Source: Waddliaceae bacterium (lineage in GTDB: Bacteria > Chlamydiota > Chlamydiia > Chlamydiales > SLOH01). From it: DNA of 57,199 bases. How positions within the stretch are numbered: the stretch's first letter is position 1; each line of letters starts with the position of its first letter. This document shows, piece by piece, positions 2,149 to 57,084 of this stretch. The notes beneath the pieces are model-generated. The model ran no database searches. It was not told the DNA's origin and was given only the letters and a program-made list of their open reading frames with translations. A program made the position numbers and the translations under genes. Where the stretch lies: contig JBBDJA010000031.1 in assembly GCA_040880105.1 (NCBI GenBank), forward strand, positions 1 through 57,199, given 5' to 3'.

Positions 2149-2247
2149 TTTTTGTTTTGTAAAAAAACTATTGTAACACAATCGGGTATATTAATACTAG
2201 AAAAAAGATCCAATATTCAGTAATCAAATTTCTTTTGAGCAGCTTAA

Positions 2248-2405
2248 GGAAGGTCGAATAACGCAGGTTAATTAAATTTTGCAGGATTTCTCTAGAAATT
2301 CTAAAAAATAATCGACCTTAACTATTTTATAGTTAAGTAAGTGCGTTTATTCGAATTCCCTTGAAAAGGCACTAAATTTAAAAGCCTGAGTTTTTCAGAG
2401 AGTCT
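2248..2405. repeat. Palindromic intergenic element, copy C
   Basis: GGAAGGTCGAATAACGCAG...CTGAGTTTTTCAGAGAGTCT. Perfect central palindrome CTTAACTAT-TTT-ATAGTTAAG at 2317-2337 sits at the element midpoint. Confidence 0.85.
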
Positions 2406-2425
2406 TTGAGTTGCTATAAATAGAG

Positions 2426-13105: not shown

Positions 13106-13201
13106 TACTGCAGAATGAGATCATCTGCTGGGTCAACTATTGCAGAATGAGATCATCTGCTCGGTTAACTATTGCAGAATGAGTTGATTTGCTTGGTGAT
13201 C
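13106..13201. repeat. Tandem repeat, 3 x 32 bp, at the convergent argS/lipase junction
   Basis: TACTGCAGAATGAGATCATCTGCTGGGTCAAC / TATTGCAGAATGAGATCATCTGCTCGGTTAAC / TATTGCAGAATGAGTTGATTTGCTTGGTGATC; no spacers. Confidence 0.9.
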
Positions 13202-14278: not shown

Positions 14279-14628
14279 ATTTTATATTCTTCCGCAACTT
14301 CTAGTCGGCTTTCGTTTTCGATTCTCTCATAAAGACAGGCCCAATACAGAATGGCAGATGCAAGAGCGACGATATTGCCAATAATCGGAATCGTCTCAAT
14401 TAAGCCGAGCGTGACATTCTTAACTCCCCACATGAGCTGATCAACAAAATGGTCATCCAGTTTCCTCTGTAACATCAATTTTGCTAGTGCATTTATTATT
14501 TGGGTAACGCCAGTTGTTACTTTGATCCAAGCAAAGGTTCTTCCGATCAGTGGAATAGAGGAGGCAATTGAAAGAACGGTGTTAAATGCGATCTGTCGAT
14601 CTGTAATATTATGGGTATTTACTTGCAT
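14275..14628 (-). CDS. Small hypothetical membrane protein
   Basis: 117 aa with hydrophobic SIPLIG and ETIPIIGNIVALA segments; ATGA overlap with the downstream hydrolase. Confidence 0.7.
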   Translation of the reverse strand: MQVNTHNITDRQIAFNTVLSIASSIPLIGRTFAWIKVTTGVTQIINALAKLMLQRKLDDHFVDQLMWGVKNVTLGLIETIPIIGNIVALASAILYWACLYERIENESRLEVAEEYKI

Positions 14629-14686
14629 ATATAAAAAACATTAATTTATTAGTTCCTGATCATAACATTTGGATATTAAGATTTTG

Positions 14687-15682
14687 TTAATTTATGGATT
14701 CAATGACTTTATCAAAGATGTTATCAGAAAATAGAAGGCTTAAATGGCCATGATTTTGAATAGAGGTGTGATTGTGACAGCTTTCGGGTAAAGAGCGTGA
14801 GGCAGATTGATGCGGAAGCACAATCAGGTCGACGGTTGATGTAATATGATAGAAATTGGCTGTATTTTTCTCCATCTCTTCAATTCTTCTATTTAAGGTG
14901 GCAATGTATGGGGAATTCCTTTCCATTTCGCGCGCGCACTTTCCAATGCCGATTTTTGCAAGGTGCGTTCCTTGTAGAGGGGAGGCTAGTGTAATGACCT
15001 GAATTTTATTTTTGAGGAGTGGGTGTCTTTGAATAATAAGATCTGCTGCTTTGCAAGCTGCAATGCCTCCCATTGAATGACCAAGTAAAACAACTCCATT
15101 TTTTTGAATATAGTCAAAATATTTTTGAGAAAGTATTTCTATTTGCTCTGCATATTGATCGATGGATGCAAACATTTTTCTTTTTGTGAGGGTTACAAAA
15201 TTAAAACCGGCGCTTTGGAGCCTTCGACGTCCGTATATCCAAGCAGAACTGTTATGGAGGTATCCATGAGATGCAATCACAAGTGGCTTATTTCCCTTTA
15301 GATTAGAAGCGTCCGGGTTCTGCTTTTCTAAACGATAGAAGTAGAAAAAAATATGTATTGGGAGAGTTAAAAATTCTTTTCCCGCTCCATTGACCCAATG
15401 AACGGCGCGCCTTGCTTTAAGCGGGAGATAAGGTGTTGCAAATTCTCCAAATAACAAAGACCCGAGCAGTAGTGAAGAGAGGAGTAAAGGATTTGTGCCT
15501 ACAATTCCGATGATTCCCAAGCAAACGATGAGGGCAAGTGCGATTTCAGAAACCCTTAGAGTCACCTCAAGAATTTGTGATAGACGTCTCTCTCTATCGG
15601 TGGAAGAATATTCAGATTGGACCCTAACTTCTTCGTTGATAGAGGATGCGTTGTGGCTATTAACGAGAGTAGCTGTATTCAT
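14687..15682 (-). CDS. Alpha/beta hydrolase (lipase/esterase-like) paralog with N-terminal hydrophobic hairpin
   Basis: SHGYLHNSSAW, GHSMGG, ITLASPLQGT and HGHLSLL motifs. ATG at 15682 has an AAGGTG RBS; the track start 15724 lies inside repeat E. Confidence 0.85.
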   Translation of the reverse strand: MNTATLVNSHNASSINEEVRVQSEYSSTDRERRLSQILEVTLRVSEIALALIVCLGIIGIVGTNPLLLSSLLLGSLLFGEFATPYLPLKARRAVHWVNGAGKEFLTLPIHIFFYFYRLEKQNPDASNLKGNKPLVIASHGYLHNSSAWIYGRRRLQSAGFNFVTLTKRKMFASIDQYAEQIEILSQKYFDYIQKNGVVLLGHSMGGIAACKAADLIIQRHPLLKNKIQVITLASPLQGTHLAKIGIGKCAREMERNSPYIATLNRRIEEMEKNTANFYHITSTVDLIVLPHQSASRSLPESCHNHTSIQNHGHLSLLFSDNIFDKVIESIN

Positions 15683-15708
15683 ATTAAACACCTTTCTTTG
15701 ACTTTGAA

Positions 15709-15855
15709 GAAACCCTTGACTCACTCAGATTGTTAAATTTAGCACCGCTCTTGAGGGAATTTTAGTGAAACGTAATCGTTTGACCATCAATTCATTTTTC
15801 GAATTTTAGAAAAAATTCATGAAAAATTAAATCGACCCGAGTTAATCAGACTCCT
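15709..15855. repeat. Palindromic intergenic element, copy E (centre shortened)
   Basis: GAAACCCTTGACTCACTCAGATTGTTAAATTTAGCACC..GAGGGAATT...TTTTTCGAATTTTAGAAAAAATTCATG..GAGTTAATCAGACTCC. Confidence 0.8.
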
Positions 15856-15957
15856 TCTTTAACTAATAGTATAGTTGGCGAATGTTAATATTTGATAAAT
15901 AATAGAATGGCTATCCGACTTATCACAGGTTGGTCATAAAGAAGTGGGGGGAGAATA

Positions 15958-16695
15958 TTAATATGACATCCGATTGTCATCGTTTGTCATCAATAATATC
16001 TTAGAGAAAATCTCTTTTGAATAAAGCAAAGCAATATGGCCAATGCCTTCTTTTAGAGTGACTCGGGGATCTCTAATCGGGAGGGAGCGGATAGAAGATG
16101 CGTAAGGAATGACTAAAAGATCGGTTTTATTACCAAAATGATGAAAATGCAACATTTTCTCATGAAGTGTCATTTGTTCTAGAAGATTTTGGGTAAAAGG
16201 GGAGTGGGGATACATCTCTTTGGCGCACTGTCCGAACCCGATATAGGCAGTGTAAGTGCCTTCTAAAGGCGAGCCTAGAGTTGCGACAGTCATTTTACCT
16301 GCTAGATCAGGGTAGGCATGCAGCAATGCAATTGCACCTTTGGATACGGCAAGTCCTCCCATCGAATGACCGAGCAAAATAAGACCATTTTTTCTAATGT
16401 AACTTAAGTATCGTTCAGATAGAGAGACGATCTGATCTTTGTAAAGGTCAATGGATCCACCTGCCTTTTTTTTTGTTAGAGCTACAAAAGGAACGCGTCG
16501 CTTATTAAACCATCTTTTAGCAAAAAACCATGAGGAGGAATTATGAATGTACCCGTGCGCGCCAATAACAAGTGGCGCTGTGCCTTTAAGATTGTCGGGT
16601 GATGGATTTCTTTTTTCTAGATTATAGAAGTATAGCAACATGAAGATCGGAAGGGAGATCAATTCGGAGAGAATGCCTTTTATCCACTGAATCAT
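15958..16695 (-). CDS. Alpha/beta hydrolase (lipase/esterase-like) paralog, short form
   Basis: AHGYIHNSSSW, GHSMGG, TLGSPLEGT and IGHIALL motifs. Lacks the long N-terminal extension; ATGA overlap with epmB. Confidence 0.85.
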   Translation of the reverse strand: MIQWIKGILSELISLPIFMLLYFYNLEKRNPSPDNLKGTAPLVIGAHGYIHNSSSWFFAKRWFNKRRVPFVALTKKKAGGSIDLYKDQIVSLSERYLSYIRKNGLILLGHSMGGLAVSKGAIALLHAYPDLAGKMTVATLGSPLEGTYTAYIGFGQCAKEMYPHSPFTQNLLEQMTLHEKMLHFHHFGNKTDLLVIPYASSIRSLPIRDPRVTLKEGIGHIALLYSKEIFSKILLMTNDDNRMSY

Positions 16696-19251: not shown

Positions 19252-21207
19252 CTATTTTTCAGCAGAAGCTTCCTTGATGCTTGTGATCAGAACGAGATCT
19301 TTAATAATGTTGTCTGCTTCGATCATTTGTAAATCATTTTTTCCAAATTGATCGTCTTCCTGCTCGCTTTCCGAAGTGCCGAATTTTTTAAGTTCTTTTA
19401 AAAACGTTTGGTAATTGCGGTTGTTTTCGATGCGGTAATCTGAATTTTTTTTCAAAGTCGCGATATGCTTTGTGTATGTGTCATTTTTTTTCTGGAGATT
19501 GTAAAGGTAGAGAGGTCGGATCTTTTGCCGTTGAAAAAATGGAATATCCGCAAGATCATCATCAAAATTTTCATTAATATGGTCATTATCTAGAGGGTAC
19601 TTGGCAAATTGCTCGCCAAAGTCCATTTCAGAAAGTAGACCCGGAACAACGATATCGGCAGGAACCCCTGTCATTTGGGGGGATTTACCTGATACGGTAT
19701 AGTAGCGCCCACGAGTGACTTTATATTCGCCTATAGGATTGATTTTGTCAGTATCTTGTGTACTGACCGTTAAGATTTGAAAAGTCCCTTTACCAAAGGT
19801 GTGATCATCACCGACAATGATTCCACGACCATAGTCTTGAAGCGCTGCGGCCACAATTTCTGCTGCGGATGCACTTGCCTTATTCACAAGAACAACAAGA
19901 GGACCGTCCCACATTGTCTTCCCATCAATATCGCGGAGGTGCTGAACGTTTCCGTTATGATCCATAATAGAGACAACGATTCCTTTGGTGATGAAAAGTC
20001 CTGTGACCCCAACCGCCTCTGTGAGGAGTCCACCGGAGTTGTATCTTAAATCGAGAATGACCCCTTTAATATTATGTTCCTTTTTTAAATCCTCAAATTC
20101 TCTTTTTAAATCTTTAGTCGAAGAATTTTCCGGATCTTGATAAAAAGTGTGTAGTTTGAGGTGTGCGATGACCCCGTCTCCGAAAGGCTCATGAGATACA
20201 TCATAGCGGGCCTCTTTTAAGACAACCTCACCCCGTGTGAGGGTGATTTCAAGCTTTTCCTCATCTTTCTCTTCGTCTGCTTTATTTCGCATAATTGTAA
20301 GAAGAACCTCAGTATCTTCTTTACCGCGGATGAGGTCGACAGCATCTACAATTGCCATCCCGACAATTGGCTCTCCGTTAACAGCGATAATGCGATCATT
20401 GACTCTTAGTTTTTTACTTAAGGAGGCCGGACCTCCTTCAATAATCCTTACAACAGTTAAACCGTTGATATCATCTCGCAATTGAGCGCCGATTCCAAAT
20501 AATCTTTGTTGGACATCAATCATGAATTGAGACGCTTCTTCCGGTGTAAAATACGATGTATGCGTATCTAAGGCGGATGCAGTCGATTTCAAGACCTTTG
20601 TTAGGACAAGGTTTTTCACATGAACTGGATCGTTATTTTGAAGTTCTGACTCTTGATTGAGACGATACTTTTTTAAACGCTGCTCTGCTAGTTCCCTTAG
20701 CTCTTCTTTCATTTTAATCGTTGTTTCGATTTGCAGAGCCTTTATTCGTGTTAAACGATTGAGAAGTTCATTTTTATCATGTGCCCATTCTAGATCTTTA
20801 AATTCTTTAGCAGAGACATTTTTTGGAAGTTCATCTAAATCGATTTGAGTTTCAAGTTCGTGTCTTCTCTCAATGGCGCCGAGCATTGTTTTGTGGATTT
20901 CATAAAACGTTGAAAAGTTGTTTTCCTTGTATTCTTTTAAGATCTCTTCTAGTTGTTCAGGTGTTGGGTTTACCCATTGGTTAATTTCGGTTTCAATAAA
21001 ATACGATTTTGTCGGATCTAGTTGGTCAAGAAAATTTTCAAGAGTTCTTTGGATGACTAAAGGAGTGAGCTCCTTATGAGTCACGTGGCTTTTCATGATT
21101 TCATTGACCTTTTCAACAACGATGGGGGGTTCAAGATTAGGGAGCTTGGCATTAAGAGGAAGGAGGGGTAGGAGTGTCGTTAAAAAGATGAGGAAAAATT
21201 TTATCAT
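19252..21207 (-). CDS. tsp: Tail-specific (S41) protease with PDZ domain
   Basis: Signal peptide, LDTHTSYF, GIGAQL (PDZ), DLRYNSGG, SASAAEI and TFGKGT motifs. Confidence 0.93.
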   Translation of the reverse strand: MIKFFLIFLTTLLPLLPLNAKLPNLEPPIVVEKVNEIMKSHVTHKELTPLVIQRTLENFLDQLDPTKSYFIETEINQWVNPTPEQLEEILKEYKENNFSTFYEIHKTMLGAIERRHELETQIDLDELPKNVSAKEFKDLEWAHDKNELLNRLTRIKALQIETTIKMKEELRELAEQRLKKYRLNQESELQNNDPVHVKNLVLTKVLKSTASALDTHTSYFTPEEASQFMIDVQQRLFGIGAQLRDDINGLTVVRIIEGGPASLSKKLRVNDRIIAVNGEPIVGMAIVDAVDLIRGKEDTEVLLTIMRNKADEEKDEEKLEITLTRGEVVLKEARYDVSHEPFGDGVIAHLKLHTFYQDPENSSTKDLKREFEDLKKEHNIKGVILDLRYNSGGLLTEAVGVTGLFITKGIVVSIMDHNGNVQHLRDIDGKTMWDGPLVVLVNKASASAAEIVAAALQDYGRGIIVGDDHTFGKGTFQILTVSTQDTDKINPIGEYKVTRGRYYTVSGKSPQMTGVPADIVVPGLLSEMDFGEQFAKYPLDNDHINENFDDDLADIPFFQRQKIRPLYLYNLQKKNDTYTKHIATLKKNSDYRIENNRNYQTFLKELKKFGTSESEQEDDQFGKNDLQMIEADNIIKDLVLITSIKEASAEK

Positions 21208-24374: not shown

Positions 24375-25166
24375 ATGATCTGTTGGACGATTTGCTGCGC
24401 AGAAGGATTTGAGCTGGAGCAGCTGAAAGAACATCTTGATAAACAGTATAAGTGTCGACTGTACGACCATGTGATCCATGTTGAAGTTAAAGAGAATCAA
24501 TTACCTAAGCAGCTTTTTTACTTTCGGTACGGTGTCATTGTGTTTTGGGGAATCTCAAAACAGCAGCACCAAAAGTATCTTGATCTCGCATTGCAGTTTG
24601 CAAGAGGAAAGCTGGATGAAAATGTCGAAGATGAGTTTGTTTATGCTTACGGTGATTTGTCGAAGATTAAAGAAAAGTGCATTATCCTTCCCGATCATGA
24701 ACTTTTAACTAAGCTTGCAGTTAGCCATGCCATGGCTCAATCTGCAAAACTTGAAGTTTTTGAAATCCGCATCGAAAAAACCATTCAAGAAATGCAGCCG
24801 ATTCCTCTGCAACTGGCAAAGACAGGAAGGCAACCTTTTTCCAGTCTTCAACTGAGAAGGAAGATGGGAAAACTTTATGTAGATAAAAGCTCAATCAACC
24901 TGCACTTTGATCTGCTCGATGTGCCTGATTTTTTCTGGGATTACGAAGAACTAGAACCCATTTATTCACTGACCGCAAACTATCTCGACATTAAAGATAG
25001 GGTCGATATTTTGAACCAAAAACTCCATGTGATGAGCGAGTTATATGAGATGCTCAGCGAAGAGCTGAAGCATCGTCACTCCTCCAGGTTGGAATGGATC
25101 ATCATTGTTCTTATTACCATCGAGGTGGTTGTCGTATTGTCAAAAGATATTCTTAAAATATTGTAG
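24375..25166 (+). CDS. RMD1/YagE (DUF155) family protein
   Basis: FRYGVIVFWG, SHAMAQSAKL, PDFFWD and RVDILNQKL motifs; LEWIIIVLITIEV C-terminal TM. Confidence 0.92.
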   Translation: MICWTICCAEGFELEQLKEHLDKQYKCRLYDHVIHVEVKENQLPKQLFYFRYGVIVFWGISKQQHQKYLDLALQFARGKLDENVEDEFVYAYGDLSKIKEKCIILPDHELLTKLAVSHAMAQSAKLEVFEIRIEKTIQEMQPIPLQLAKTGRQPFSSLQLRRKMGKLYVDKSSINLHFDLLDVPDFFWDYEELEPIYSLTANYLDIKDRVDILNQKLHVMSELYEMLSEELKHRHSSRLEWIIIVLITIEVVVVLSKDILKIL

Positions 25167-25202: not shown

Positions 25203-28200
25203 CTACTCCTCTAAATCCGGAAGAATTAAATGTTTGTTCAAGTTGAGGTTCGGAGCCTCTTTCCATACACGATAGTTATCCGGAAATACCCAGTGACCAC
25301 TTTTTGCATGCTTTGGAAACCATGAATCTTGACTCATGAAATGTACTTCCTCAAGATCGGGGGTATATGTGGCAAGCTCAATCTTTTCTGTCCCTGGATT
25401 GACAAGGAAGATGAAATGCATGTTATGGATTCCACTTGTCCAGTTTGTGTCATGGGTGACAATTCCTGAGTTTATCAGGCGATCTTGCACTGTATCAGGA
25501 AGCGTTGAGACAATTTTTGTGTCCAAGTAAGGAGAAAATTGATGGATCCACCCCCCGTCGGTACTTTGTAGATCATCGCAGTGCGCTTTATAAGCGGCAT
25601 CTAGAATTTCTTTTCTAAACTCTTTAATTGTGATCCCATATGGAATTCTTCTTGCGCTATTGAGGAATCGTTTCGATCCTTGTTCAGAAAGCGCAATGCT
25701 ATCTTTTCTATTCCTTGCAAAGTGAATCAGCTTTTTTACTCGCTCAGGATCTTGAGCACTAAGTGTTTCTGCATAATTACTAAAAATTTTAGTAAATATC
25801 CTCTCCCAATGTTCATTCCGCTCTCCGATTTTAGGATCATGCGCTCGGCTTAAGCAGACAATATTTGCAATTGCTTGAACGCTTGGAGATGAAACTCCCT
25901 CGATGAGGCTGTCAAATATTTCTTTAGATTTTTCGCTAAGTTGTTGGCGAACCCAGTCTTCCTTTTCTCTGGGGCGACACGTCCACTGATTGTTTGCAAC
26001 AAACTCAATAACTGCATCTCGTTCCACTTTATTCAAACGACGATTTGCAATCGCTTTACCGGGTCTTTCTACATTCTTTTGTATATACTCATTGGTCGAG
26101 AGATCCGATGACCAAGCAGATTTAAAACTATCTTCAAATCCTCTCAATAAAAACGCGTGAACAGGGGATGTAACGATCACCGGATTTCTCGGATCGCAAA
26201 ACGATGCTTTTAAGTGATCCGGTTGATTTTTCACAAAATTGATACACTTAGCGAGAACTTCTTTTGGTGTTCCGTTAAAATTCTTCAATTTTGATGGTGA
26301 TGAGTTAAATCCAAAGTAGGTCTTAAGTACCGAATTAAAATCTCCACCCCACTTAAATACCCAAGGTTTTGATCTGATGTTGTGGGCATTAATTTTTAGC
26401 AGTTGTGATTCGCCAAGATCGTGACTAAGTGTTGAAATCATTTTCTTTGCGAATTCAGGATTAGCAAACTCTCTACATAGATTTTCAGCTCTAGAAGTGT
26501 ACTTACTTCCTCCACCTAAATAATCCGCTGTTTTCAAGATCACATCTTGCAGAAACCGTTGAAACTTTTCTGTTGTTCCAATCGATTCCCATTCATGCGG
26601 AGGGGAATAGTCGGAAAACGGTTGAACTTTTACATCCTTTTCATCCGCATCTAGCATTCGAAGTAAATGCGTTGAGTAGATAAAGTCTTTTGGCAAGCCG
26701 GAATCGTAAAGTTCATATCCAAAGTTATGATGGTCATTTGTCCCGTAATTATTATCGTCAAAGATTACCTTAGCATCCTCAATGTGTGGATTGTACTGAT
26801 ATCTCATTCGAGTTAACATTGGAAGGAAGCTCTCATCGAGAATTTCATTGTAAATTTCTCTCTCAGACTCAGGGAATTTATTTATGGATTGATCAAGGAT
26901 ATCTCTCATCAATTCAATCATACATAGAGAAATTGCATATTGCGACCCAAAGATAAGAACCATCGATGCAGCCGCCTGCTCATATGCACGGTGGAGCGGG
27001 TGGGTTGTTTGTGTCCCGAATGCAAACTGCGCTTTGGTAAGAAGCTCTTCTTCCGATCGGTTCTTTTCAGATCGAAGGATGCGCGAATTTTGCTGTGAAA
27101 AATAGGCGTATTTTGCAAGTTGCTTTAATAGGCAATTAACCGAAAAGGTTTTTGGCAACCAGCTTTGTGCCTTTAAAACAGCATCTTTTATATTTTCTAA
27201 TTTGAGAGCCGTACATGCTGAGATAATTCCCGGAGAATCATAAAGATAATGACCGCTTTGGGGTTTTGGCCAGCGATGACTTTTATCGGAACTTAGATTG
27301 TAGCACTGAGTTTTAAGAATCTGCCCCTTTCTCCCCAAAGTAATAATTGTATCTAAATACTCATTAGTCACTCTCTCAAGATAGGGGAATTTTCTCAGTT
27401 CGTTTCCAACGACGCGTTCAATATACCCTTGTTCTGTCAATTGAATCAGGTCTTCAACAAAAATACTGCTATAAGCAAGCTGGGATTTTATTAGACACGC
27501 TGTTGCAAAACAAGTTCCGGCTCTGCCTTGTCTCAAGTGACCCAGAAGGGCGCTTAATACAAAAATTTGGGCATGGCGTTTGGTAATGACTTCATCGTAT
27601 GAGAGTAAAAGGGCTGCTCGAATTGCAGAATCAGAGACAATATTTTTTGATTCAGGGGGGGAGATATCTTCGATCTGATTCAAAAGAGACATGTTATTTT
27701 GTAACTCTGCAACCACAAGATAAAGGTGATCCATCGCAACTGTATCAGCAAACCGCTCAGGAACTAACTGTTCGATATCCTCTATAACCCCAAAATTAAT
27801 TCCCCCCGTTTCAAGAACTAAAAACTTTGAAATCTCCACTGTCATTTTATGGAACAATGCTTGATCCGCATTTTGAATAGAGACATTTTTGTGTCTCATG
27901 TCATGGGCAATTAAGCTCTTTTTCACTCTAGAAATATATGTGCGAGATTTTGCGGCAAATTTCTTGATTGCTTGTGGAAAACTGTTTTTTAAGACGATCT
28001 GAATAGCCTTATTTGGTTCTTCCTGTGCAACTAGCAAAAGGTGACCGAGCCGATTATACACAAGAGCACGCGCCTTATCTTCAGGACTCATCTCTTCTTC
28101 AGCTGCTGTTTCACATATTTCCATTTGAGACCCTGATAATTCGGACTCAATTTGTTGTAAAAGATCTCCAATCTGCAAAGATGAACTAGCTAAGAGTGCA

Positions 28201-28598
28201 TCCTCTTTTCCCTCCTCACTTAATTGAGAGATGATTTGTCTTGCAAACTCAAGAACGACATTTTTTCTTCTTTTGTTTTTCATGAGAAGTTGCAAATGCT
28301 GCATTTGATAATCAATGCGCTCATCCCCGGTGGATCCTTCAATTGACTGTTCCATTCCAAATGCCTCTAAAGCGATCCCAGATTCGACCTTTGCATTTAA
28401 GTGCTGAATTGCCATTAACCTTTGTGTCGTCATTCCAAGGTAAAATGCATCTTCTCTTAACATTTCAATTGGACGGTCTTTATTGATTTTTGCAATTTTA
28501 TTTTTTACAAACTGATGTACGTTTTCTTCACTTTTTCTTTTCGAGAGAATGTTTTTAGGTAGAGGAGAAGATGAAGAGATTTCAGCTACTGGGTTCAT
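25203..28598 (-). CDS. Large hypothetical protein; candidate papain/calpain-like cysteine protease effector
   Basis: ~1130-aa open frame with a GGAGG RBS before ATG 28598. RQGRAGTCFATA, SPVHAF and HDTNW motifs; Ser-rich N-terminus. The ORF is secure; the function is inference. Confidence 0.6.
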   Translation of the reverse strand: MNPVAEISSSSPLPKNILSKRKSEENVHQFVKNKIAKINKDRPIEMLREDAFYLGMTTQRLMAIQHLNAKVESGIALEAFGMEQSIEGSTGDERIDYQMQHLQLLMKNKRRKNVVLEFARQIISQLSEEGKEDALLASSSLQIGDLLQQIESELSGSQMEICETAAEEEMSPEDKARALVYNRLGHLLLVAQEEPNKAIQIVLKNSFPQAIKKFAAKSRTYISRVKKSLIAHDMRHKNVSIQNADQALFHKMTVEISKFLVLETGGINFGVIEDIEQLVPERFADTVAMDHLYLVVAELQNNMSLLNQIEDISPPESKNIVSDSAIRAALLLSYDEVITKRHAQIFVLSALLGHLRQGRAGTCFATACLIKSQLAYSSIFVEDLIQLTEQGYIERVVGNELRKFPYLERVTNEYLDTIITLGRKGQILKTQCYNLSSDKSHRWPKPQSGHYLYDSPGIISACTALKLENIKDAVLKAQSWLPKTFSVNCLLKQLAKYAYFSQQNSRILRSEKNRSEEELLTKAQFAFGTQTTHPLHRAYEQAAASMVLIFGSQYAISLCMIELMRDILDQSINKFPESEREIYNEILDESFLPMLTRMRYQYNPHIEDAKVIFDDNNYGTNDHHNFGYELYDSGLPKDFIYSTHLLRMLDADEKDVKVQPFSDYSPPHEWESIGTTEKFQRFLQDVILKTADYLGGGSKYTSRAENLCREFANPEFAKKMISTLSHDLGESQLLKINAHNIRSKPWVFKWGGDFNSVLKTYFGFNSSPSKLKNFNGTPKEVLAKCINFVKNQPDHLKASFCDPRNPVIVTSPVHAFLLRGFEDSFKSAWSSDLSTNEYIQKNVERPGKAIANRRLNKVERDAVIEFVANNQWTCRPREKEDWVRQQLSEKSKEIFDSLIEGVSSPSVQAIANIVCLSRAHDPKIGERNEHWERIFTKIFSNYAETLSAQDPERVKKLIHFARNRKDSIALSEQGSKRFLNSARRIPYGITIKEFRKEILDAAYKAHCDDLQSTDGGWIHQFSPYLDTKIVSTLPDTVQDRLINSGIVTHDTNWTSGIHNMHFIFLVNPGTEKIELATYTPDLEEVHFMSQDSWFPKHAKSGHWVFPDNYRVWKEAPNLNLNKHLILPDLEE

Positions 28599-28733
28599 AA
28601 GGACCTCCAAGTTGTTCCTGAAGTTTGGTGGTAAGTGTTTTTTTCAGGATTGACGAATGAACAATTTTTGATTTAAAAGAAATGATATCAAAAGTAAAGG
28701 AAATATTTTACTGTAACCCAAAATGGGGGAATA

Positions 28734-30653
28734 ATGTCTTCAATATCTTCAATATCTTCCAATGAAGAGCGTTATGATTTACGTCCGAGAAAGAAACAAA
28801 AGCGGTTGAGACGAGTCGGAGAAAAGCGTGTCGAGGATATTGCTTCAAATATCTTAGAAAACTATCGTCGCACAAAATCTGTCGATAGAGAACCTATTGA
28901 CACATCGTCATCTGATGATGAAGAGTATTTTTTACCTGAAAGGCACAAACAAAACGGCTTGACAGCTGAAGATATAGCTTCAAGCATTTTAAATGATTTT
29001 CCTCGAAAAGAGATTGTTGGCAGAGAGAAAGAATCGCTTGAGATACTGAGTATGATTCTGCAGCCAAGAGAAGGGGTGCGTCCACTATTAATTGGGCCAA
29101 GAGGTGTGGGAAAAGAGTCTCTTGTCTCGAAGGTCTCTACAGCCTCAGCTTTGAAAAACAGAAAAATCGTGATGTTAGATTGTCATGAGTTGATCGCCGG
29201 GCCAAATAAGGATCTGTTAGAAACATTTAAAGCGCTGGTAGATTACACTTTATCAGATCCAAGAAATATTCTTTATTTGCAAAATATTGAAAAACTGGTT
29301 CTTACAGATTCTCTCACGGAGTACGCTCAAACACTATTTAAGAGGCAAATTTCACTCATCGGATCGATAAGCGAAGAGTCGAACGATGAAAAGATTCATT
29401 CTGTTCAAAAGTTGCTCTCTAAATACAGTTTTGTTCCCTATTTAGTAAAGGAATCACCCATTGAAGATGTTCAGATTATCGTTAAAAATTATTTAAAGGA
29501 GAATCCTGTCGATTTCAAAGTTGAGATTGAAGACGATGCCATTGATTGCGCGATCAAACTTGCAGCTAAATATGAGCAGAGAAACCCCTTTCCAATGAAA
29601 GCGATTCAACTCATTCAAGGCTGCGTCTGTCGCTACCTACTTTTGCACCAACACGGGAAAGTCACTCAAAAGGAGATACTGGAATACGTCTCTTCAAAAG
29701 CCAAGATTTCGGCTAGTGATTTAATGGAAGAGGCAATATTCGACGAAAAGCAATTTATAAGAAAAATTAGAGGAAATATTGTCGGACAAGATCATGCGAT
29801 ACAAATGGTTGCCGATAGAATTTGTTCATACAGGCTTGGACTTCTGGATTGCAATCGGCCTTGGGGCGTTTTTCTTTTTGTCGGCTCAACAGGGGTAGGG
29901 AAAACAGAGCTTTCAAAAAATATCGCCGATTTTCTCTTTAATGATAAAAATAAATTTATCCGGATCGATGGATCGGAATATAAAGAATCGCACACTGTCT
30001 CCAATCTAATCGGAGCACCTTTGGGATATGAGGGGAATGAAATCGGTGGGTTGTTGACCGAACCACTCCTTCAAGATCCAAAAAGAGTGGTCCTTATTGA
30101 TGAACTTGAAAAAGCGCACCCGGATGTTCAAAAGCTCTTGCTTCAGATTCTGGATAGCGGATCTATTTTAGATCGACGTGGGAAACGAGTCGACTGCTCT
30201 CAAGCGATCTTTATTATGACCTCAAATATCGGCTCTGATACCCTTTTTCAGTTAGGAGAAGAGGCTTTGACAAATGAAAAAGATGTCCTTGAAATCTTAA
30301 ATCCTCTTTTGGTTGAAGCATTTACCCCGGAGCTATGCAATCGATTCAATGCGATTGTTCCGTTCCAGCCATTGAATCAAAAACTTCTTCCCAAAGTCAC
30401 AGAGGTTCATCTTCACCGCATAAAAAAAAGGCTACAAGAACAAGCAGGAATTGATCTAGAGTGGACAGAGGATTTAGTAAGCTACTTTGGACAATTAGAT
30501 TTTGATTTTCGATTTGGTATGCGGGGATTCTGTAGAAAGATCGATAACCTCATTACCTCATACATTAGAGATATTGTGAATTTGCAAAAGGTGCGGCTAA
30601 AGGGAAAGATTATCTTTTCCACCCAAAATGGTGAAGTAATGGTTAGGTATTAA
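28734..30653 (+). CDS. Atypical ClpA/B-family AAA+ ATPase
   Basis: IVGREKE and GPRGVGKES (NBD1, Walker B degenerate); IVGQDHAI, GSTGVGKTE, GAPLGYEG, LIDELEKAHPDV, IMTSN and PELCNR (NBD2). Confidence 0.88.
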   Translation: MSSISSISSNEERYDLRPRKKQKRLRRVGEKRVEDIASNILENYRRTKSVDREPIDTSSSDDEEYFLPERHKQNGLTAEDIASSILNDFPRKEIVGREKESLEILSMILQPREGVRPLLIGPRGVGKESLVSKVSTASALKNRKIVMLDCHELIAGPNKDLLETFKALVDYTLSDPRNILYLQNIEKLVLTDSLTEYAQTLFKRQISLIGSISEESNDEKIHSVQKLLSKYSFVPYLVKESPIEDVQIIVKNYLKENPVDFKVEIEDDAIDCAIKLAAKYEQRNPFPMKAIQLIQGCVCRYLLLHQHGKVTQKEILEYVSSKAKISASDLMEEAIFDEKQFIRKIRGNIVGQDHAIQMVADRICSYRLGLLDCNRPWGVFLFVGSTGVGKTELSKNIADFLFNDKNKFIRIDGSEYKESHTVSNLIGAPLGYEGNEIGGLLTEPLLQDPKRVVLIDELEKAHPDVQKLLLQILDSGSILDRRGKRVDCSQAIFIMTSNIGSDTLFQLGEEALTNEKDVLEILNPLLVEAFTPELCNRFNAIVPFQPLNQKLLPKVTEVHLHRIKKRLQEQAGIDLEWTEDLVSYFGQLDFDFRFGMRGFCRKIDNLITSYIRDIVNLQKVRLKGKIIFSTQNGEVMVRY

Positions 30654-30654
30654 A

Positions 30655-31422
30655 ATGGGAAACGCAAAGCAGATTTTCACGCCCAAGCATGACCGTCCAA
30701 TGCATGTGGTCGTTTTTGGATCGGGTCCGGGGGTCAACCTACTTGGGCTTTTGCAAGCAGAAAAGGAGATGAAAGCGCTTTTTTCCATTCGGGCGCTCTT
30801 AGTCGATAAGCCATGCGGATTTGAAGAGATCGGAAAAGCGGCGGGATTACCTGTGATACTCAATTCCTTTAAGGAGTTTTTCAGTAAAAGAGGTGTAGAT
30901 GACATCACAGATGAAAAGACTCGCGTCGCCTATGATCTAGAAAGCGTCAAACGCCTTCAAGAACTCAATTTTTCAATCGATTTAATTTTTCTTGCAAACT
31001 ATATGCGGGTCATCTACTCACCGCTGCTTAACGCGTTTCCAAACGCTATTATCAATGTCCATCCATCCGATTTGACAGTGAAAGATACACAAGGTGAGAG
31101 GAAGTATAAGGGCGCTCATGCGGTCTATGACGCTTTGAAAGCAGGTGAGATAAAAACACGGTCGAGTGTGTTTTTAGTTGATAGCCATTTAGATACAGGG
31201 CCGTTACTTGTTTCAGGGCCTTTTGTTGATTATACCGAAGGGGTACCTGTCACAAAAGAGAAGGCAAAGCTTCATCAGGAGAAACAGAAAATTCAAAGTG
31301 ATCTACCCGCAGTAAAAAAAGCATTATCATTGATTGCTCAGGGAAAATTACTTGTCGATGAAAATCGAGGCATTTGGCTTGAGAATGAAAAGCTCGGGGA
31401 GTCGGGAATTATCTGCAGTTAG
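30655..31422 (+). CDS. PurN-like formyltransferase (GAR transformylase family)
   Basis: GSGPGVNL, LANYMR, INVHPS and LDTGP motifs (catalytic N, H, D present); starts 1 nt after the Clp stop. Confidence 0.82.
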   Translation: MGNAKQIFTPKHDRPMHVVVFGSGPGVNLLGLLQAEKEMKALFSIRALLVDKPCGFEEIGKAAGLPVILNSFKEFFSKRGVDDITDEKTRVAYDLESVKRLQELNFSIDLIFLANYMRVIYSPLLNAFPNAIINVHPSDLTVKDTQGERKYKGAHAVYDALKAGEIKTRSSVFLVDSHLDTGPLLVSGPFVDYTEGVPVTKEKAKLHQEKQKIQSDLPAVKKALSLIAQGKLLVDENRGIWLENEKLGESGIICS

Positions 31423-31527: not shown

Positions 31528-31646
31528 ATTGGAAGTGGAAGAAGAGATGGGGAGTCACCTGAAAAACCACTTCATTTCCTGTGAATACTTATTGTGTAAT
31601 CACCTATGGACGTCCGGACAAATGTATTGAGGAAAAATAAATGAAT

Positions 31647-31719
<73 letters not shown>

Positions 31720-31764
31720 AGATGATTCAAGTCGCTAAATGGACTTTTTATCGAACCAACGGAG

Positions 31765-32373
31765 TTAAGATAGAAGAAACTCACTTTTTGTGCAATAGAT
31801 TTTAATGCAGATGTCAATTTGTTTGAACTGGGTTTGAAATTGCGGACGATCATGCAGCAGGACAGCTTGTAGATAATTCATTAAAACAAAAAAAATGCTC
31901 CGATTTCTAACTCCCTTAATCAATAAGCCAATTGTGAAGTAATGCTCGATATCCGGAATGACATAATTTTCCTTTTGAACTATGGACAAAGCTAGCATCT
32001 GACTCTTCATTCCTTTTAGACGCTTTGAATACAAATCATCGTCTATTATTTTTTCTTGATCAAAAACTTGGATTTGTTTGAATTGATCAAATGCCTCTTT
32101 CTTTACTGTATAGCCGCTTAAGTAATGATAAAGGGAGATAATGTGGATTAATACCATGATTTTACTTAATTTAGGGGAGTAAATAGGGGATGGTAAAAAC
32201 TCTCGTTTAAAAAAACTTTTGATACAAAGATTATTTTTGTGAAGGAACTCTGCGAGTTTTAGATAATCGTTTGCGACATCAAAAAGGTACTCAAGAACAA
32301 GGTGAGAGGGTCCATAAGGAATCAATTGTTCAATTAGATCTTTAGTCTCCTTGTATTCAACGAGCGGATTCAT
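31765..32373 (-). CDS. Hypothetical protein
   Basis: 202-aa ORF starting 3 nt after the stop of the second tsp; no recognisable motif. Confidence 0.65.
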   Translation of the reverse strand: MNPLVEYKETKDLIEQLIPYGPSHLVLEYLFDVANDYLKLAEFLHKNNLCIKSFFKREFLPSPIYSPKLSKIMVLIHIISLYHYLSGYTVKKEAFDQFKQIQVFDQEKIIDDDLYSKRLKGMKSQMLALSIVQKENYVIPDIEHYFTIGLLIKGVRNRSIFFVLMNYLQAVLLHDRPQFQTQFKQIDICIKIYCTKSEFLLS

Positions 32374-32376
32374 GAT

Positions 32377-34239
32377 TTAATTGTGTCGATTCATATCTTT
32401 AATAATGAGGATCGCTTCATCGACTTGGACTTTGTTGATAAAAGCCGCTTCATTTTGATTTAAAACAGGTTTGTAAATCAGTTGTTGATAGTCTACATTT
32501 TGAGCCAATCGCTTTTCGCTTTGCCTTCTCAGATAAGGAACCATCATCTTCCACTCTGTTGTTTTCTTTTGTAAGGAAGGAACATAGTAACTTAAAAACC
32601 AAGGGCGCTTTTGTCGCTCGACATCTTGAAGGGGGTCTTCAAACAGCGCGGCGATCTTTCCGCTCTCAATCGGATCTTCAAGATACTCCTCACCAATCAT
32701 CTCATTATGGTAAATTCCTGGCACTAAAATATCAGCTAGTACCCCAGTTTTTTGAGGAGATTTTCCGGATACTGTATAGTACTGGCCTACGGTCACTTTA
32801 AATTGAGAGGTTGCATCTGAACTTGTTGTTGTTTGACTTTGGATCGTTCCCTTACCGTATGTTCTTTGATCTCCGACTATAAGAGCAATTCCATAATCTT
32901 GAAGCGCCTGGGCCACAATTTCAGCTGCAGATGCAGTCGCCTTTGAGGTTAAAACAATAATCGGGCCATTATAGGCATCAAAATGATCTAAATCTCGGTA
33001 TAGCTTCTTCGATCCATTTTCGTATTTTGAGACAACGACAATTCCAGTTGTCATAAAAAGTCCGGCAACATTGACAGCCTCGCTTAAGAAGCCGCCGCTG
33101 TTATCTCTCATATCAAGTATTAGACCCTTTAAAGATCCTTTTAGCTTTAATCGCTCGATTGCCTTTTTAAGATCATTTTCTGTAGATACTTCATTTTTTC
33201 CGCGATAGAATGAATCAATAGTAATAAAACCAATAATTCCATTATTCCATGGAATGGCTTGCTCCTTGACGCGCCCCTCATCGATTGGAATAAAGGCTTT
33301 ATTGAGAGTGACCTTAAATGTTCTGCCGTTTCGAACGAGAGTCAAAACAATTTGCTTTTTTCCTTCCGAACGCAGCATCTCAACAACACTGACTAGCGGC
33401 TTGATATCGACTTTTTGATTATCAATTCGAATAAGCTGATCACCTTCTTTAATTTGTTTAGATTTTTCAGCAGGACTTCCCTTTAAAATCTCTGTCACAT
33501 AGAAGTAACTACCCCTCTTCTCGACATGAACTCCAATTCCCTCAAAACCTTTTTGTAGTTTGATTTTAAGATCAAAAGCCTCTTTTGGATCAAAAAAAGA
33601 ACTATGAGAATCTAAACTACTTGTTAATGCTTTGAGAATATGGAGAGTCATCAGATTTTGTGTTTGTTCTTTTGAAAGAGGCTCTCCCTCATCATCGAGG
33701 AAAAGGTAGGTATTCTCCTCTAAGCGTTTCTGGCTGTCATATTGGTTAAAGAGGCTTTTTGAGGGTTTGCGGCCAAGCGACTCTGCGAACTGCCCAAAAT
33801 CATAGTGAATCCGTCTTTTTAGCTCATTGACGGAGCGGGCAAACTGAATCGGATTCACCTCCGGAATTGGCTCTTCGACTAGTAATTCGCTTCTGATTGA
33901 GCGTGCTCGAATAATAGATTTTTGAATTTGCGCATTCAACGCTTCATAAGCGGAAAAGTCTTCTTGATCATACTGTATCATTAAATCGAGAACGTCTTCA
34001 TCGGACAGACGGGCGTAAGGAAGCACTTCTTCTTCAAGAAAGTATGTGTGGTTAGGATCGAAACGCTCGATATAACGAAGGAATGAGTCTCTGATCACAT
34101 CTTTTGTGATTCCTTTATTCGATATATGTTTGCCAAAGATAGATTGCATCACTTCATGGATATTGGTTTTCTCAAGCGGCAATTGTTCTTGAGAAAAAAG
34201 CGAAAGCGTCAACGTAAGTAAAATAATGATAAAGCGCAA
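32377..34239 (-). CDS. Second tail-specific (S41) protease paralog with PDZ domain
   Basis: TTG start at 34239 after AGGAGG, then a signal peptide; LDSHSSFF, GIGV, DMRDNSGG, TASAAEI and TYGKGT motifs. Confidence 0.9.
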   Translation of the reverse strand: MRFIIILLTLTLSLFSQEQLPLEKTNIHEVMQSIFGKHISNKGITKDVIRDSFLRYIERFDPNHTYFLEEEVLPYARLSDEDVLDLMIQYDQEDFSAYEALNAQIQKSIIRARSIRSELLVEEPIPEVNPIQFARSVNELKRRIHYDFGQFAESLGRKPSKSLFNQYDSQKRLEENTYLFLDDEGEPLSKEQTQNLMTLHILKALTSSLDSHSSFFDPKEAFDLKIKLQKGFEGIGVHVEKRGSYFYVTEILKGSPAEKSKQIKEGDQLIRIDNQKVDIKPLVSVVEMLRSEGKKQIVLTLVRNGRTFKVTLNKAFIPIDEGRVKEQAIPWNNGIIGFITIDSFYRGKNEVSTENDLKKAIERLKLKGSLKGLILDMRDNSGGFLSEAVNVAGLFMTTGIVVVSKYENGSKKLYRDLDHFDAYNGPIIVLTSKATASAAEIVAQALQDYGIALIVGDQRTYGKGTIQSQTTTSSDATSQFKVTVGQYYTVSGKSPQKTGVLADILVPGIYHNEMIGEEYLEDPIESGKIAALFEDPLQDVERQKRPWFLSYYVPSLQKKTTEWKMMVPYLRRQSEKRLAQNVDYQQLIYKPVLNQNEAAFINKVQVDEAILIIKDMNRHN

Positions 34240-34272
34240 AAGAACCCTCCTTTTCCTTATTATAATAATTAT

Positions 34273-34332
34273 TTTAAGAAAAAGTCCAATAAGCAATTTA
34301 ACTCTGTTGGAAATTAAATTAATCAGAGGCTC
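34273..34332. repeat. Remnant arm/terminus of the palindromic element
   Basis: AATTTAACTC...TTAATCAGAGGCTC resembles the right arm of copies D and E. Confidence 0.45.
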
Positions 34333-40452: not shown

Positions 40453-41988
40453 ATGTCACAACAATCAACAGCTGAATTTGGAAGGTTGCGGGCCTTTTTT
40501 TGGCCTGTTCATACGTGGGAGCTTAAAAAAATACTCCCGATGTTTTTAATGTTCTTTTTCATCTCATTTAACTATACGATTTTAAGAGATACAAAAGACA
40601 CATTGATTGTCACCTCGTCCGGTGCGGATGCGATCCCGTTTTTGAAGTTATACGGAACAGTCCCTTCCGCTATTATTTTTATGCTTGTATACGCGAAATT
40701 GAGCAATATGCTTTCTAAAGAAAGGTTGTTCTACGCAGCAATTATACCTTTCCTGGTTTTCTTTGCTTTATTTCCTGTTTTTATTTACCCAAACCGTAGT
40801 CTTTTATGCCCAACGACGTCTGCTGATTGGTTGCAGTCAATCCTACCTTTAGGAATGAAAGGGTTAGTTGGATGTTATAGAAACTGGGATTATTCTCTTT
40901 TTTACATTCTTTCGGAACTTTGGGGAAGTGCGATTCTTTCTCTAGGCTTTTGGGGATTTGCAAATGACATTATGAGAATTAATGAAGCTAAGCGTGTATA
41001 TACACTTCTTGGAGTAGGCGCTAACGTTGCTCTTTTAGTTTCAGGTCCAATGATTACATACTTCTCACAAATTCGCGGAAATATGCCGGTCGGTGCCGAT
41101 CCTTGGCAGATCTCGCTTAATTATTTGATGGGTTCTGTGGTTGTTGCCGGTGCAATGATTGTAGGTATCTACTGGTGGATGAACCGTAATGTTCTCACAG
41201 ATCCGAAGTTTTATGACCCACAAGATGTGAAACAGAAGAAAGATAAGCCTAAGATGTCAATTGTCGATAGCTTTAAGTTTTTACTAAAATCTAGGTATAT
41301 TTTCCTAATCGCATTACTTGTAATGTCTTATGGAATTTGCATTAACCTAGTTGAAGTGACATGGAAAGGGCAGCTTAAATTACAGTACCCTAACCCTAAT
41401 GACTATAGCGCCTTCATGGGTGGACTTTCCTTTGCTACAGGTGCGACAACAATCTGCTTAATGTTTATTGGTGGATGGTTAATGCGTACTTTTGGCTGGA
41501 GATTCGCTGCAATGGCAACTCCTGTCATGTTGTTATTAACAGCTACAGGTTTCTTTGCTTTTGTGATTTTTAGCGATTCACTTCACTATTATGTTGCAGC
41601 CCTTGGAACAACACCGCTTTTCTTAGCTGTCATTATTGGTATGATTCAAAACGTACTCAGTAAGTCGACAAAATACTCTCTCTTTGATCCGACAAAAGAG
41701 ATGGCGTATATTCCTTTAGATCAAGAATCTAAAGTGAAAGGAAAGGCTGCAATTGACGTAGTAGGAGCAAGACTTGGTAAATCAGGTGGTTCTGCTATTC
41801 AACAAGTACTCTTAGTTGCCGTTGGCTCTCTCGGAGCAATTACTCCATACGTTGCAGTCTCTGTAATTGTAGTAATGGTTGCTTGGATGCTTGGAGTTCG
41901 CAGCTTAAGCCGCTTGTTTGCTGAACTTACAGGTCAAAAAGAAGAAGTATCTCCCGCTACTGAATCAGCGGCGCAGGCAGCGACTTAA
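40453..41988 (+). CDS. npt1: ATP/ADP translocase (Npt1/NTT1)
   Basis: FNYTILRDTKDTLIVT, SELWGS, FWGFAN, INLVEVTWK and KYSLFDPTKEMAYIPLDQESKVKGKAAIDVVGARLGKSGG motifs. Confidence 0.95.
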   Translation: MSQQSTAEFGRLRAFFWPVHTWELKKILPMFLMFFFISFNYTILRDTKDTLIVTSSGADAIPFLKLYGTVPSAIIFMLVYAKLSNMLSKERLFYAAIIPFLVFFALFPVFIYPNRSLLCPTTSADWLQSILPLGMKGLVGCYRNWDYSLFYILSELWGSAILSLGFWGFANDIMRINEAKRVYTLLGVGANVALLVSGPMITYFSQIRGNMPVGADPWQISLNYLMGSVVVAGAMIVGIYWWMNRNVLTDPKFYDPQDVKQKKDKPKMSIVDSFKFLLKSRYIFLIALLVMSYGICINLVEVTWKGQLKLQYPNPNDYSAFMGGLSFATGATTICLMFIGGWLMRTFGWRFAAMATPVMLLLTATGFFAFVIFSDSLHYYVAALGTTPLFLAVIIGMIQNVLSKSTKYSLFDPTKEMAYIPLDQESKVKGKAAIDVVGARLGKSGGSAIQQVLLVAVGSLGAITPYVAVSVIVVMVAWMLGVRSLSRLFAELTGQKEEVSPATESAAQAAT

Positions 41989-55560: not shown

Positions 55561-57084
55561 TTAAAATTTTCCAATAGGATCTTGAGGAGTAATTTCTTTC
55601 ACACGATCTTTTGGATTATCCCAGACACGTTGCAAATTTTCTGGAAGATATTTTTTTAAAATAAAAAATTCATACCCATATTCCCTTAACCAGCTGTCAC
55701 TCATGATCAGTTCATCTTGATCTTCCCACGAGTTTTCAATTTTCCAGAGCCGCCCGTATTCTTCTTCAATTCCCACAGGTAATTTATTCTCAACCGGATC
55801 ATCACAACCGACAATATTCATTAAGTGCGCACATGATGTCGCACCGTATAATAATCGATCTCCTTTGCTGAGTTTAATAGAGGAGTCAAAATCAAAAATT
55901 TCATCTTTGAGATCATTTTGGATAGAGAAGAAATTTACTCTTTCATCAAGGTGTTTGACATCAGCTGCCATTGGAACTGCATTTCCGTTAATAATCGATT
56001 GAAAAATTGCTTGAATAATCACATCAATATTTACATTTAACCCTCTAAATTCCTTTCCACCTACCATATTTTTAATTTCTTTTCCTTCTAGGACCATATT
56101 CTCTTCGTGATAAGGAATATGAGTTAAATGAACAATTTCATCTAAATCGACCTTGGATCTACGATAAAATTCTAGGGGTGTTAACATCTTTGGCATCCGG
56201 AGGTTATGTGTGACGATAACGTCTTCTCCTGATTCTTCTTCTTTTATTTCGTATGGAAAATAATCCTCTTGATCACTCTCTGCGTCCATAGAACATTTGG
56301 CAGTGTCATTACTTTCATTCCAAACAAATGACTTTGGCGGGATTCCCAAGTATTTTGTCAAAATGCTATAGACCTCATTTAGTGCCTGGTTTTTTATCTC
56401 TTGAATTTTTGGATTTTTGATATCGGCTTTAGCCAATTGATGTATGACCCCACCGACTTCACTCAAACGACACTTTAAAGTTTCCATATACCCCACAGAA
56501 TTCCTACTGAATTCTGTTTCAGGCATTGCATAATCGGGAACAAGACCGTATTTTTTGACAATATTGCAGAAATATTCCCATTGGCCGCCGTCGGTAATTA
56601 GGTAGTTTGAGAAGTCTCGAATTTCAATGTCCAACGGATGAATATTTCTCATCTCAATCATTTTTTCTAAAAAATAATTTGCCCTCTCAAGTTTATCCCA
56701 AAAGGCGACAAAGTTGTGAGAATAATGAAACTCTTCCCCATATCTACTCAAGACCCCTATCCGCATCATATTTAGGCCGGAAAAAATCCAGCACCTTCCC
56801 GAATTTCCCTGATTAGATGGTTTGCCTAGTTTAATTTGATACATTGTCTTTAGATTCTCTTTTCGAACCAATGGCTTGGAGTTAATGTCTTCGATTCCAT
56901 ATTTTGAAATGTAGCGAGTTAACAATGGAGACTTCACACTAAAAGCCTCCACTCTTCTGCAAGAGAGAGCGTTTAGGCGATATGGAAGGTGTTGGCTTAC
57001 TTGATGCGCTTGGTTTCTGTTCAATCTCTCAAATTCATGAAGATAGACACTAGATGCATGTGGAATCCTAGAAAAAGACATCAC
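55561..57084 (-). CDS. Peptidase C1B (bleomycin hydrolase/aminopeptidase C family)
   Basis: NQGNSGRCWIFS (Cys), FWDKLERANYFL, DGGQW, KKYGLVP, AHLM (His) and WKIENSW (Asn); C-terminal DPIG. Confidence 0.92.
   Translation of the reverse strand: MMSFSRIPHASSVYLHEFERLNRNQAHQVSQHLPYRLNALSCRRVEAFSVKSPLLTRYISKYGIEDINSKPLVRKENLKTMYQIKLGKPSNQGNSGRCWIFSGLNMMRIGVLSRYGEEFHYSHNFVAFWDKLERANYFLEKMIEMRNIHPLDIEIRDFSNYLITDGGQWEYFCNIVKKYGLVPDYAMPETEFSRNSVGYMETLKCRLSEVGGVIHQLAKADIKNPKIQEIKNQALNEVYSILTKYLGIPPKSFVWNESNDTAKCSMDAESDQEDYFPYEIKEEESGEDVIVTHNLRMPKMLTPLEFYRRSKVDLDEIVHLTHIPYHEENMVLEGKEIKNMVGGKEFRGLNVNIDVIIQAIFQSIINGNAVPMAADVKHLDERVNFFSIQNDLKDEIFDFDSSIKLSKGDRLLYGATSCAHLMNIVGCDDPVENKLPVGIEEEYGRLWKIENSWEDQDELIMSDSWLREYGYEFFILKKYLPENLQRVWDNPKDRVKEITPQDPIGKF

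Follow-up and report, generated by a model that had tools for sequence, protein, structure and literature searches.

CT590 (CTL0853) of Chlamydia trachomatis is a hypothetical protein of 954 amino acids (aa) whose family also includes a giant, protease-like protein encoded on a 57,199-nucleotide contig of a Waddliaceae bacterium (JBBDJA010000031.1 of assembly GCA_040880105.1; contig C31 of genome G000 in our set, with a genome size of 1.67 Mb and a completeness of 90%). On this contig, which we call the window, the giant gene stands head-to-head with a gene for a stripped Clp unfoldase, and the cassette to which both belong is the subject of this work. CT590 has no assigned activity in the papers cited here. 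Its disruption impairs the growth of C. trachomatis, the progeny of a transposon mutant being reduced almost 100-fold at 24 h (PMC6686042), and a test of its secretion was inconclusive (PMC3931295). A Chlamydiaceae-type homologue of 957 aa, equated with CT590 by synteny and length rather than against a named record, is flanked by sdhB on one side and by two SpoIIE-type genes, enolase and uvrB on the other, which is the locus order given in PMC6686042. CT590 and the window giant both carry the Gln, Cys, His, Asp, Asn and Trp set described below, but the giant is longer, has about 20% identity to CT590, bears a basic tail and has one extra residue between the Gln and the Cys.

The Clp protein resembles ClpB/Hsp104, ClpA and ClpC in having two AAA+ modules, the second nucleotide-binding domain (NBD2) keeping Walker A and B, the pore loop and sensor 1, but N-domain, M-domain and ClpP loop are all missing from it and its first domain (NBD1) is degenerate. 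Human CLPB/Skd3, which is among the PDB matches of this Clp and is like it in having a single motor, operates with one NBD2-type module, and the plant SMXL proteins are Clp-derived nuclear regulators; unlike these, the chlamydial protein has neither ankyrin nor double Clp-N regions and is encoded by a bacterial gene in linkage with protease and nuclease genes. Its disordered tail recalls the viral nucleosome tethers (the foamy-virus Gag chromatin-binding sequence, Kaposi's sarcoma-associated herpesvirus LANA and cytomegalovirus IE1), which are likewise short arginine anchors in disordered regions; those are tethering peptides with solved nucleosome complexes, whereas here there is only a likeness of motif, on a bacterial ATPase. 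Nucleomodulins such as SINC of Chlamydia psittaci and RomA of Legionella are secreted and act at the host nucleus (PMC4436835, PMC10653858), but they are single effectors, whereas the present case is a multi-gene cassette. A literature search, outside which most subscription papers lay, found nothing on this cassette, on a multi-gene unfoldase-protease-nuclease set or on a secreted Hsp100, and the cassette is real and apparently undescribed; tables of predicted effectors that accompany chlamydial genome papers could be relevant to its novelty.

A conserved cassette of giant, Clp and exonuclease

The giant open reading frame (ORF) occupies positions 25203..28598 on the minus strand and encodes 1131 aa, counted from an ATG that is preceded by GGAGG at 5 nt (with a TTG start 12 nt upstream of this ATG, the product would have 1135 aa). 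The Clp-like ORF, the third Hsp100/Clp of its genome, occupies 28734..30653 on the plus strand and encodes 639 aa. A preliminary description, made from the letters of the window, had reported that the two genes lie head-to-head across only 135 bp and had proposed that they form a co-regulated module. The gap is indeed 135 bp from ATG to ATG (28599..28733), and a scan of it for sigma-70-like promoters gave weak matches only, fewer than in shuffles. The linkage is borne out by gene neighbourhoods elsewhere: among 11 giant genes (genomes or contigs, duplicate loci counted once and the 3-kb L050 set aside), giant and Clp are head-to-head in eight (G000, G401, G379, G172, L049, G078, G195 and G403), which span about five separate lineages, and because the arrangement recurs in this way the pairing is more than chance. 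The two genes are convergent in G348, where one 612-aa gene lies between them, and in G285 and G402 they lie on different contigs. The 612-aa gene (L045:3307-5145) has no Pfam match and several basic clusters, and is a possible exonuclease replacement.

The module was originally thought to have three parts, the third being the formyltransferase that follows Clp. Giant and Clp do belong together, but the third member is a tandem DEDDh exonuclease (520-730 aa, with two RNase_T/DEDDh domains), which directly follows Clp in 7 of the 12 Clp loci and is displaced in G000. There it lies on another contig than giant and Clp (C3:27453-28955, that is L075:9454-10956), has D-x-E, D and H-x4-D motifs in both domains and ends in a tail resembling a bipartite nuclear localisation signal (NLS). 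The Clp with a disordered tail (tail-Clp) was found in 8/400 genomes, from six families (NBD1 query, E <= 1e-14), the exonuclease in 7/400 (E <= 1e-30) and the giant subfamily of about 1200 aa in 7/400 including G000 (E <= 1.6e-165, the next best being 4e-35; at most two candidates scored per genome, with G005 left out). All three occur together in 6/400 genomes, and none of the three reaches these thresholds in the other 392. In the tree of the core CT590-type gene, carriers are interleaved with non-carriers. The Clp and exonuclease trees place G039 with G078/G172 (support 99 and 100) but the core CT590-type tree places it within its own family (99), a conflict that indicates at least one horizontal transfer of a Clp-exonuclease unit. 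Giant, stripped Clp and exonuclease thus form a conserved, patchily distributed chlamydial cassette.

The anatomy of the Clp protein was read from a motif alignment of 12 orthologues. In all 12 the N-domain is replaced by a disordered tail of 46-155 residues, the coiled-coil M-domain that defines ClpB/Hsp104 is absent, and NBD1 is without the Walker A Thr, the Walker B acids, the pore Tyr and the Arg fingers. In the 10 genes that are unbroken, all the NBD2 motifs (Walker A, Walker B, pore loop, sensor 1 and Arg finger) are intact; the sensor-2 Arg is replaced in G195 and G285. The protein is therefore predicted to be a single live motor, a dead first ATPase being joined to an intact second, rather than a class I Hsp100 with two catalytically intact NBDs. 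This degeneracy had escaped the preliminary description, whose proposal of a ClpP-independent unfoldase is supported: the window Clp has no Clp_N match, and the IGF/IGL ClpP-binding loop of ClpA and ClpC is absent from the orthologues. Intact ClpB- and ClpC-type genes lie elsewhere in G000. The best PDB match is ClpB (1qvr, E 1e-72), over NBD2, and for the window Clp every NCBIfam Clp model stays far under its cut-off. The 12 tail-Clps form one clade in a quick tree (Shimodaira-Hasegawa-like approximate likelihood ratio support 99), in which ClpB and ClpC were not separated as donor, the branches being long and a true root missing. The Clp copies of G379 and G403 are frameshifted, which may reflect assembly errors since other genes in both assemblies are also split. 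A PDB search with the tail gave no match, a homologue search with the N-terminal half of Clp returned one subfamily member only besides the query, and among the best 80 matches to viral contigs none had an E-value better than 1e-66. A complex prediction for Clp residues 90-639 with giant residues 36-345 returned no answer (score 0.00). Two other Clps without an N-domain in G104 (L166:7770-9944 and L167:6269-8671, one of which has no NBD1 at all) fall outside the tail-Clp clade and were rejected as members.

Judged by its sequence, the giant is a paralogue within the pan-chlamydial CT590 family, in which it belongs to a longer, separate subfamily. It has the homologous core and the invariant RQ..G.CF, PW, H and DxNW motifs of the family, and is not orthologous to CT590 itself, a single-copy core gene. 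Family homologues, mostly weak, were found in 307/400 genomes, and a search of 50%-identity clusters gave 1606 matches, of which the best 150 are all strong family members. G000 has two further paralogues: the CT590 orthologue is the C32 gene (947 aa; L048:8406-11249), and a third paralogue (L047:7999-10200, on C28) is found beside pyruvate kinase in environmental chlamydiae; each keeps the Cys/His/Asp-Asn set. Q357, G361, C363, F364, H814, D1050, N1052 and W1053 are invariant among 20 giants, 32 CT590-type and 4 third-paralogue sequences. They are also invariant, where covered, in 149 cluster representatives, except that D1050 is kept in 142/143; Q357, C363, H814, N1052 and W1053 are unchanged in all of the 143-147 representatives that cover them. 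The proposed nucleophile, Cys363 (27510..27512, minus strand), is at the start of a helix six residues past Gln357. The proposed general base, His814 (26157..26159, minus strand), directly precedes a beta-strand, and Asp1050-x-Asn1052-Trp1053 (25440..25451, minus strand; N and W 143/143) offers a candidate third triad residue, the Asp/Asn lying on a strand of a late beta-sheet in a model built from 148 sequences (predicted local distance difference test score 91.7).

The order Gln, Cys, His, Asp/Asn is that of the papain-like proteases, and in the model the giant shows the motif pattern of clan CA: a Gln, a Cys at a helix start, a His before a strand and an Asn/Asp, all conserved. This invariant set suggests a papain-like protease, and we consider that the giant is quite probably a cysteine protease or a related acyl-transfer enzyme, in keeping with the cysteine protease originally predicted. 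The giant itself matched nothing in Pfam, NCBIfam, PADLOC or PDB sequence searches, nor did its 148-row profile match the PDB, nor three of its motif regions or six homologues match Pfam, and a profile comparison with 11 C1B peptidases gave a probability of 0.1%. Fold searches returned no papain-fold match, a result that cannot test for such a fold because the core is split between its catalytic motifs by two large helical insertions of about 450 and 235 residues, for which a whole-chain search is unsuited. In the Atlas the giant scored 0.79-0.80 against calpain-type C2 clusters, within the chance range. Whatever its site of action, the conserved Cys/His/Asp-Asn set provides a catalytic hypothesis for CT590, a signature protein of the whole phylum that is annotated as hypothetical. 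A C-terminal giant fragment in the short contig set aside above (L050:1-3173) has as its neighbour an ORF rich in Ser, Arg and Lys that runs on the other strand, and L050 also holds a gene resembling the one downstream of the exonuclease in G039.

Basic tails and a predicted role in the host nucleus

The preliminary description had noted that giant and Clp both begin with Ser-rich N-termini containing basic, NLS-like clusters. Both N-termini are Ser-rich with basic clusters; of the two in the window, that of Clp satisfies a bipartite NLS rule and that of the giant satisfies neither of the preset rules. Those rules, which follow the literature, are satisfied by 9/12 Clp tails (mean 1.4 and maximum 6 in 2000 shuffles) as against 0/62 ClpB/C homologues and 62/1048 N-termini of the proteome, and by 6/9 exonuclease C-termini as against 60/1048 in the proteome. 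An enrichment of NLS-like sequence over paralogues, such as is expected of nucleomodulins, is thus seen for Clp and, more weakly, for the giants. A relaxed bipartite pattern, which the window giant does pass, occurs in 12/19 giants, 0/119 CT590-type orthologues and 15/1048 proteome proteins. Within residues 13-27 of the window Clp (28770..28814, plus strand), a YxLR motif precedes a basic cluster that is NLS-like. YxLR is present in 5/12 Clp tails, RRSxRL, HNLRN or RxLPR in four more, and an acidic LxxF[IV][VI] word in six. In foamy-virus Gag, the contacts with the H2A-H2B acidic patch are made by Y537, L539 and R540 (PMC9040877).

Similar tails are found on peptidases near the cassette. The C1B peptidase that faces Clp in G039 has a bipartite basic tail, and the M18 aminopeptidase that precedes Clp in G402 has one rich in Lys and Arg. 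The C1B family is present in 6/10 cassette genomes and in 3/30 hand-picked controls; its basic-tailed forms occur in G039, G401, G402 and three of the six G348 copies, none being found in G195 or the window, and the non-carrier G104 has a C1B with a weaker basic tail. M18 is common (27/40) at about 430 aa, and clearly basic-tailed long copies are found in G402 and G285. The window itself has a C1B, bleomycin-hydrolase-like peptidase (55561..57081, minus strand; PF03051) without a clear NLS-like tail, which is possibly a satellite of the same toolkit. The six C1B peptidases of G348 (L163:5448-8620 and other loci) include two in tandem with bipartite basic tails.

Nuclear-address-like tails on most cassette proteins suggest that the cassette is likely to act in the host nucleus. 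Our prediction, tentative and put at somewhat less than an even chance, is that giant, Clp and exonuclease make up a kit for dismantling host chromatin. The cassette proteins would, as seems reasonably plausible, be exported via a type III system, for which an export gate gene is present in G000, and once exported their basic tails would rather probably drive nuclear import. With more doubt, we propose that Clp might dock on nucleosomes through its arginine anchor, beside the acidic segment, NBD2 pulling proteins apart while NBD1 serves as a scaffold. Exposed proteins would then be cut by the giant, or by C1B or M18 peptidases where these substitute for it, and exposed nucleic acid would be trimmed by the exonuclease. 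The benefit could be the salvage of amino acids and nucleotides or a shut-off of host nuclear functions. The window's three genes for TLC nucleotide transporters and the lack of a detectable pur pathway were also counted in favour of this reading. In its boldest form, which we think rather unlikely, several chlamydial lineages would have redirected enzymes of housekeeping origin (an Hsp100 motor, a CT590-type protease, a DnaQ-type exonuclease and the C1B and M18 aminopeptidases) to the host nucleus by means of eukaryote-style tails, giving an exported chromatin-digesting machine whose motor sits on the acidic patch by a virus-like arginine anchor. Were this true, acidic-patch mimicry would extend from viruses to bacteria, and the cassette would mark which uncultured chlamydiae attack nuclei; the literature search found no report of an exported bacterial Hsp100 acting on host chromatin, nor any on a nucleus-associated chlamydia of Naegleria.

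Several points weigh against a chromatin-directed role. Chlamydiae in general have type III systems and TLC transporters and are purine auxotrophs, and for this reason these traits do not single out the cassette. By the preset rules the giants show a modest contrast with their relatives (10/19 vs 30/119 CT590-type), the window giant being among those that fail, and both the anchor motifs and the relaxed NLS pattern were drawn up post hoc from the tails themselves. Several carriers are close kin (G172/L049/G078 and G000/G401) and so do not count independently. Tails that are basic and of low complexity can also act within a bacterium, by binding nucleic acid there, and the protease activity of the giant is predicted from motifs. 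Partners are exchangeable or missing, G348 having no exonuclease and G039 (99% complete) no giant, and the genes are unlinked in G285. Finally, chromatin as the main food has been argued against for the intranuclear 'Ca. Endonucleobacter', an organism that, according to the same account, is without the TLC importers that G000 has (PMC11521996).

Two other explanations account for some of these observations. The cassette genes may encode separate effectors directed to the host or its nucleus and clustered merely by co-regulation and co-transfer. In favour of this are the varying identity of the gene facing Clp (giant, C1B, M18 or WD40), the scatter of the three genes in G285 and, in part, in G000 and G402, and the one transfer of a Clp-exonuclease unit that the tree conflict indicates. 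Yet the genes facing Clp are mostly peptidases, and their origin in three unrelated families suggests that they fill a functional slot; even dispersed cassette genes are co-retained. We find this explanation unlikely. Less likely still is a role inside the bacterium, for example in remodelling the nucleoid in the course of the developmental cycle, or in defence as a system of ATPase, protease and nuclease, with tails that bind bacterial or phage nucleic acid. Such a role would spare a hexameric Hsp100 from being exported unfolded and reassembled in the host, and the make-up of the cassette and its patchy, partly horizontal distribution are defence-like. In PADLOC, the matches are to the ATPase models PDC-M37B and DolB for Clp and to a Cas-associated DEDDh model for the exonuclease, but they cover only generic ATPase or exonuclease domains and belong to different systems, and the giant has none. 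Most cassette neighbourhoods are of a housekeeping kind rather than defence islands. Moreover, paired basic clusters with linkers of 10-20 residues recur on five unrelated protein families, and the housekeeping paralogues (ClpB/C, the CT590 type and the M18 of about 430 aa) are largely without tails.

The third explanation, that the enzyme formylates, as an accessory modification, either a substrate of the Clp-protease pair or one of its partners, was part of the preliminary description, and we now regard it as very improbable. The gene (30655..31422, plus strand) does start with an ATG 1 nt past the Clp stop at 30653, as first reported; this tight junction is kept in the sister genome G401 (81% identity), and the protein has the N-x-H and D motifs of formyltransferases although there is no pur pathway for it to serve, seven other pur-operon queries (tblastn) having found no orthologue in G000 and only a weak purF-like match. 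Against this, it lies downstream of Clp in only 2/12 loci, those of G000 and G401, and its homologues occur in 24/401 genomes, 20 of which are without the cassette. At six other-lineage loci inspected, of 23 matches, it directly follows purD in five, with purF next in four of these (the pur neighbours being identified by Pfam labels in G285 and by likeness at the other loci). In G039 it is an orphan far from Clp, beside a second tsp, obg and a 2-hydroxyacid dehydrogenase, as in the window, and it has no basic tail. The protein matches PF00551, and its best NCBIfam match is PurN (TIGR00639), at 76.1 below the cut-off of 150.1. With PurN (GAR transformylase) it has in common this domain, the N-x-H and D motifs and orthologues placed after purD; it differs in being longer, more divergent and an orphan in G000. 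It is a PurN-like purine-synthesis gene and a background neighbour rather than a member of the cassette, and the simplest reading is of a leftover purN beside which the cassette came to lie.

Other genes of the window

The remaining gene content of the window includes tsp, a euo-like helix-turn-helix gene, recJ and secDF, which together with the TLC transporter genes place it in Chlamydiota. Two tail-specific protease (S41) genes, at 19252-21207 and 32377-34296, bracket the cassette region, and the second of these adjoins the purN-like gene in G039 as well as in the window. The three TLC nucleotide or ATP/ADP transporter genes lie at 601-3982 and 40453-41988, and three alpha/beta-hydrolase (lipase-like) genes are found in tandem at 13169-16695. 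Just downstream of the purN-like gene are a tRNA-Phe gene (31646-31720) and an ORF of 202 aa (31765-32373) with no Pfam match. On the other side, a DUF155 (RMND1/Sif2) gene at 24375-25166 is convergent with the giant, an arrangement shared by G401 only.

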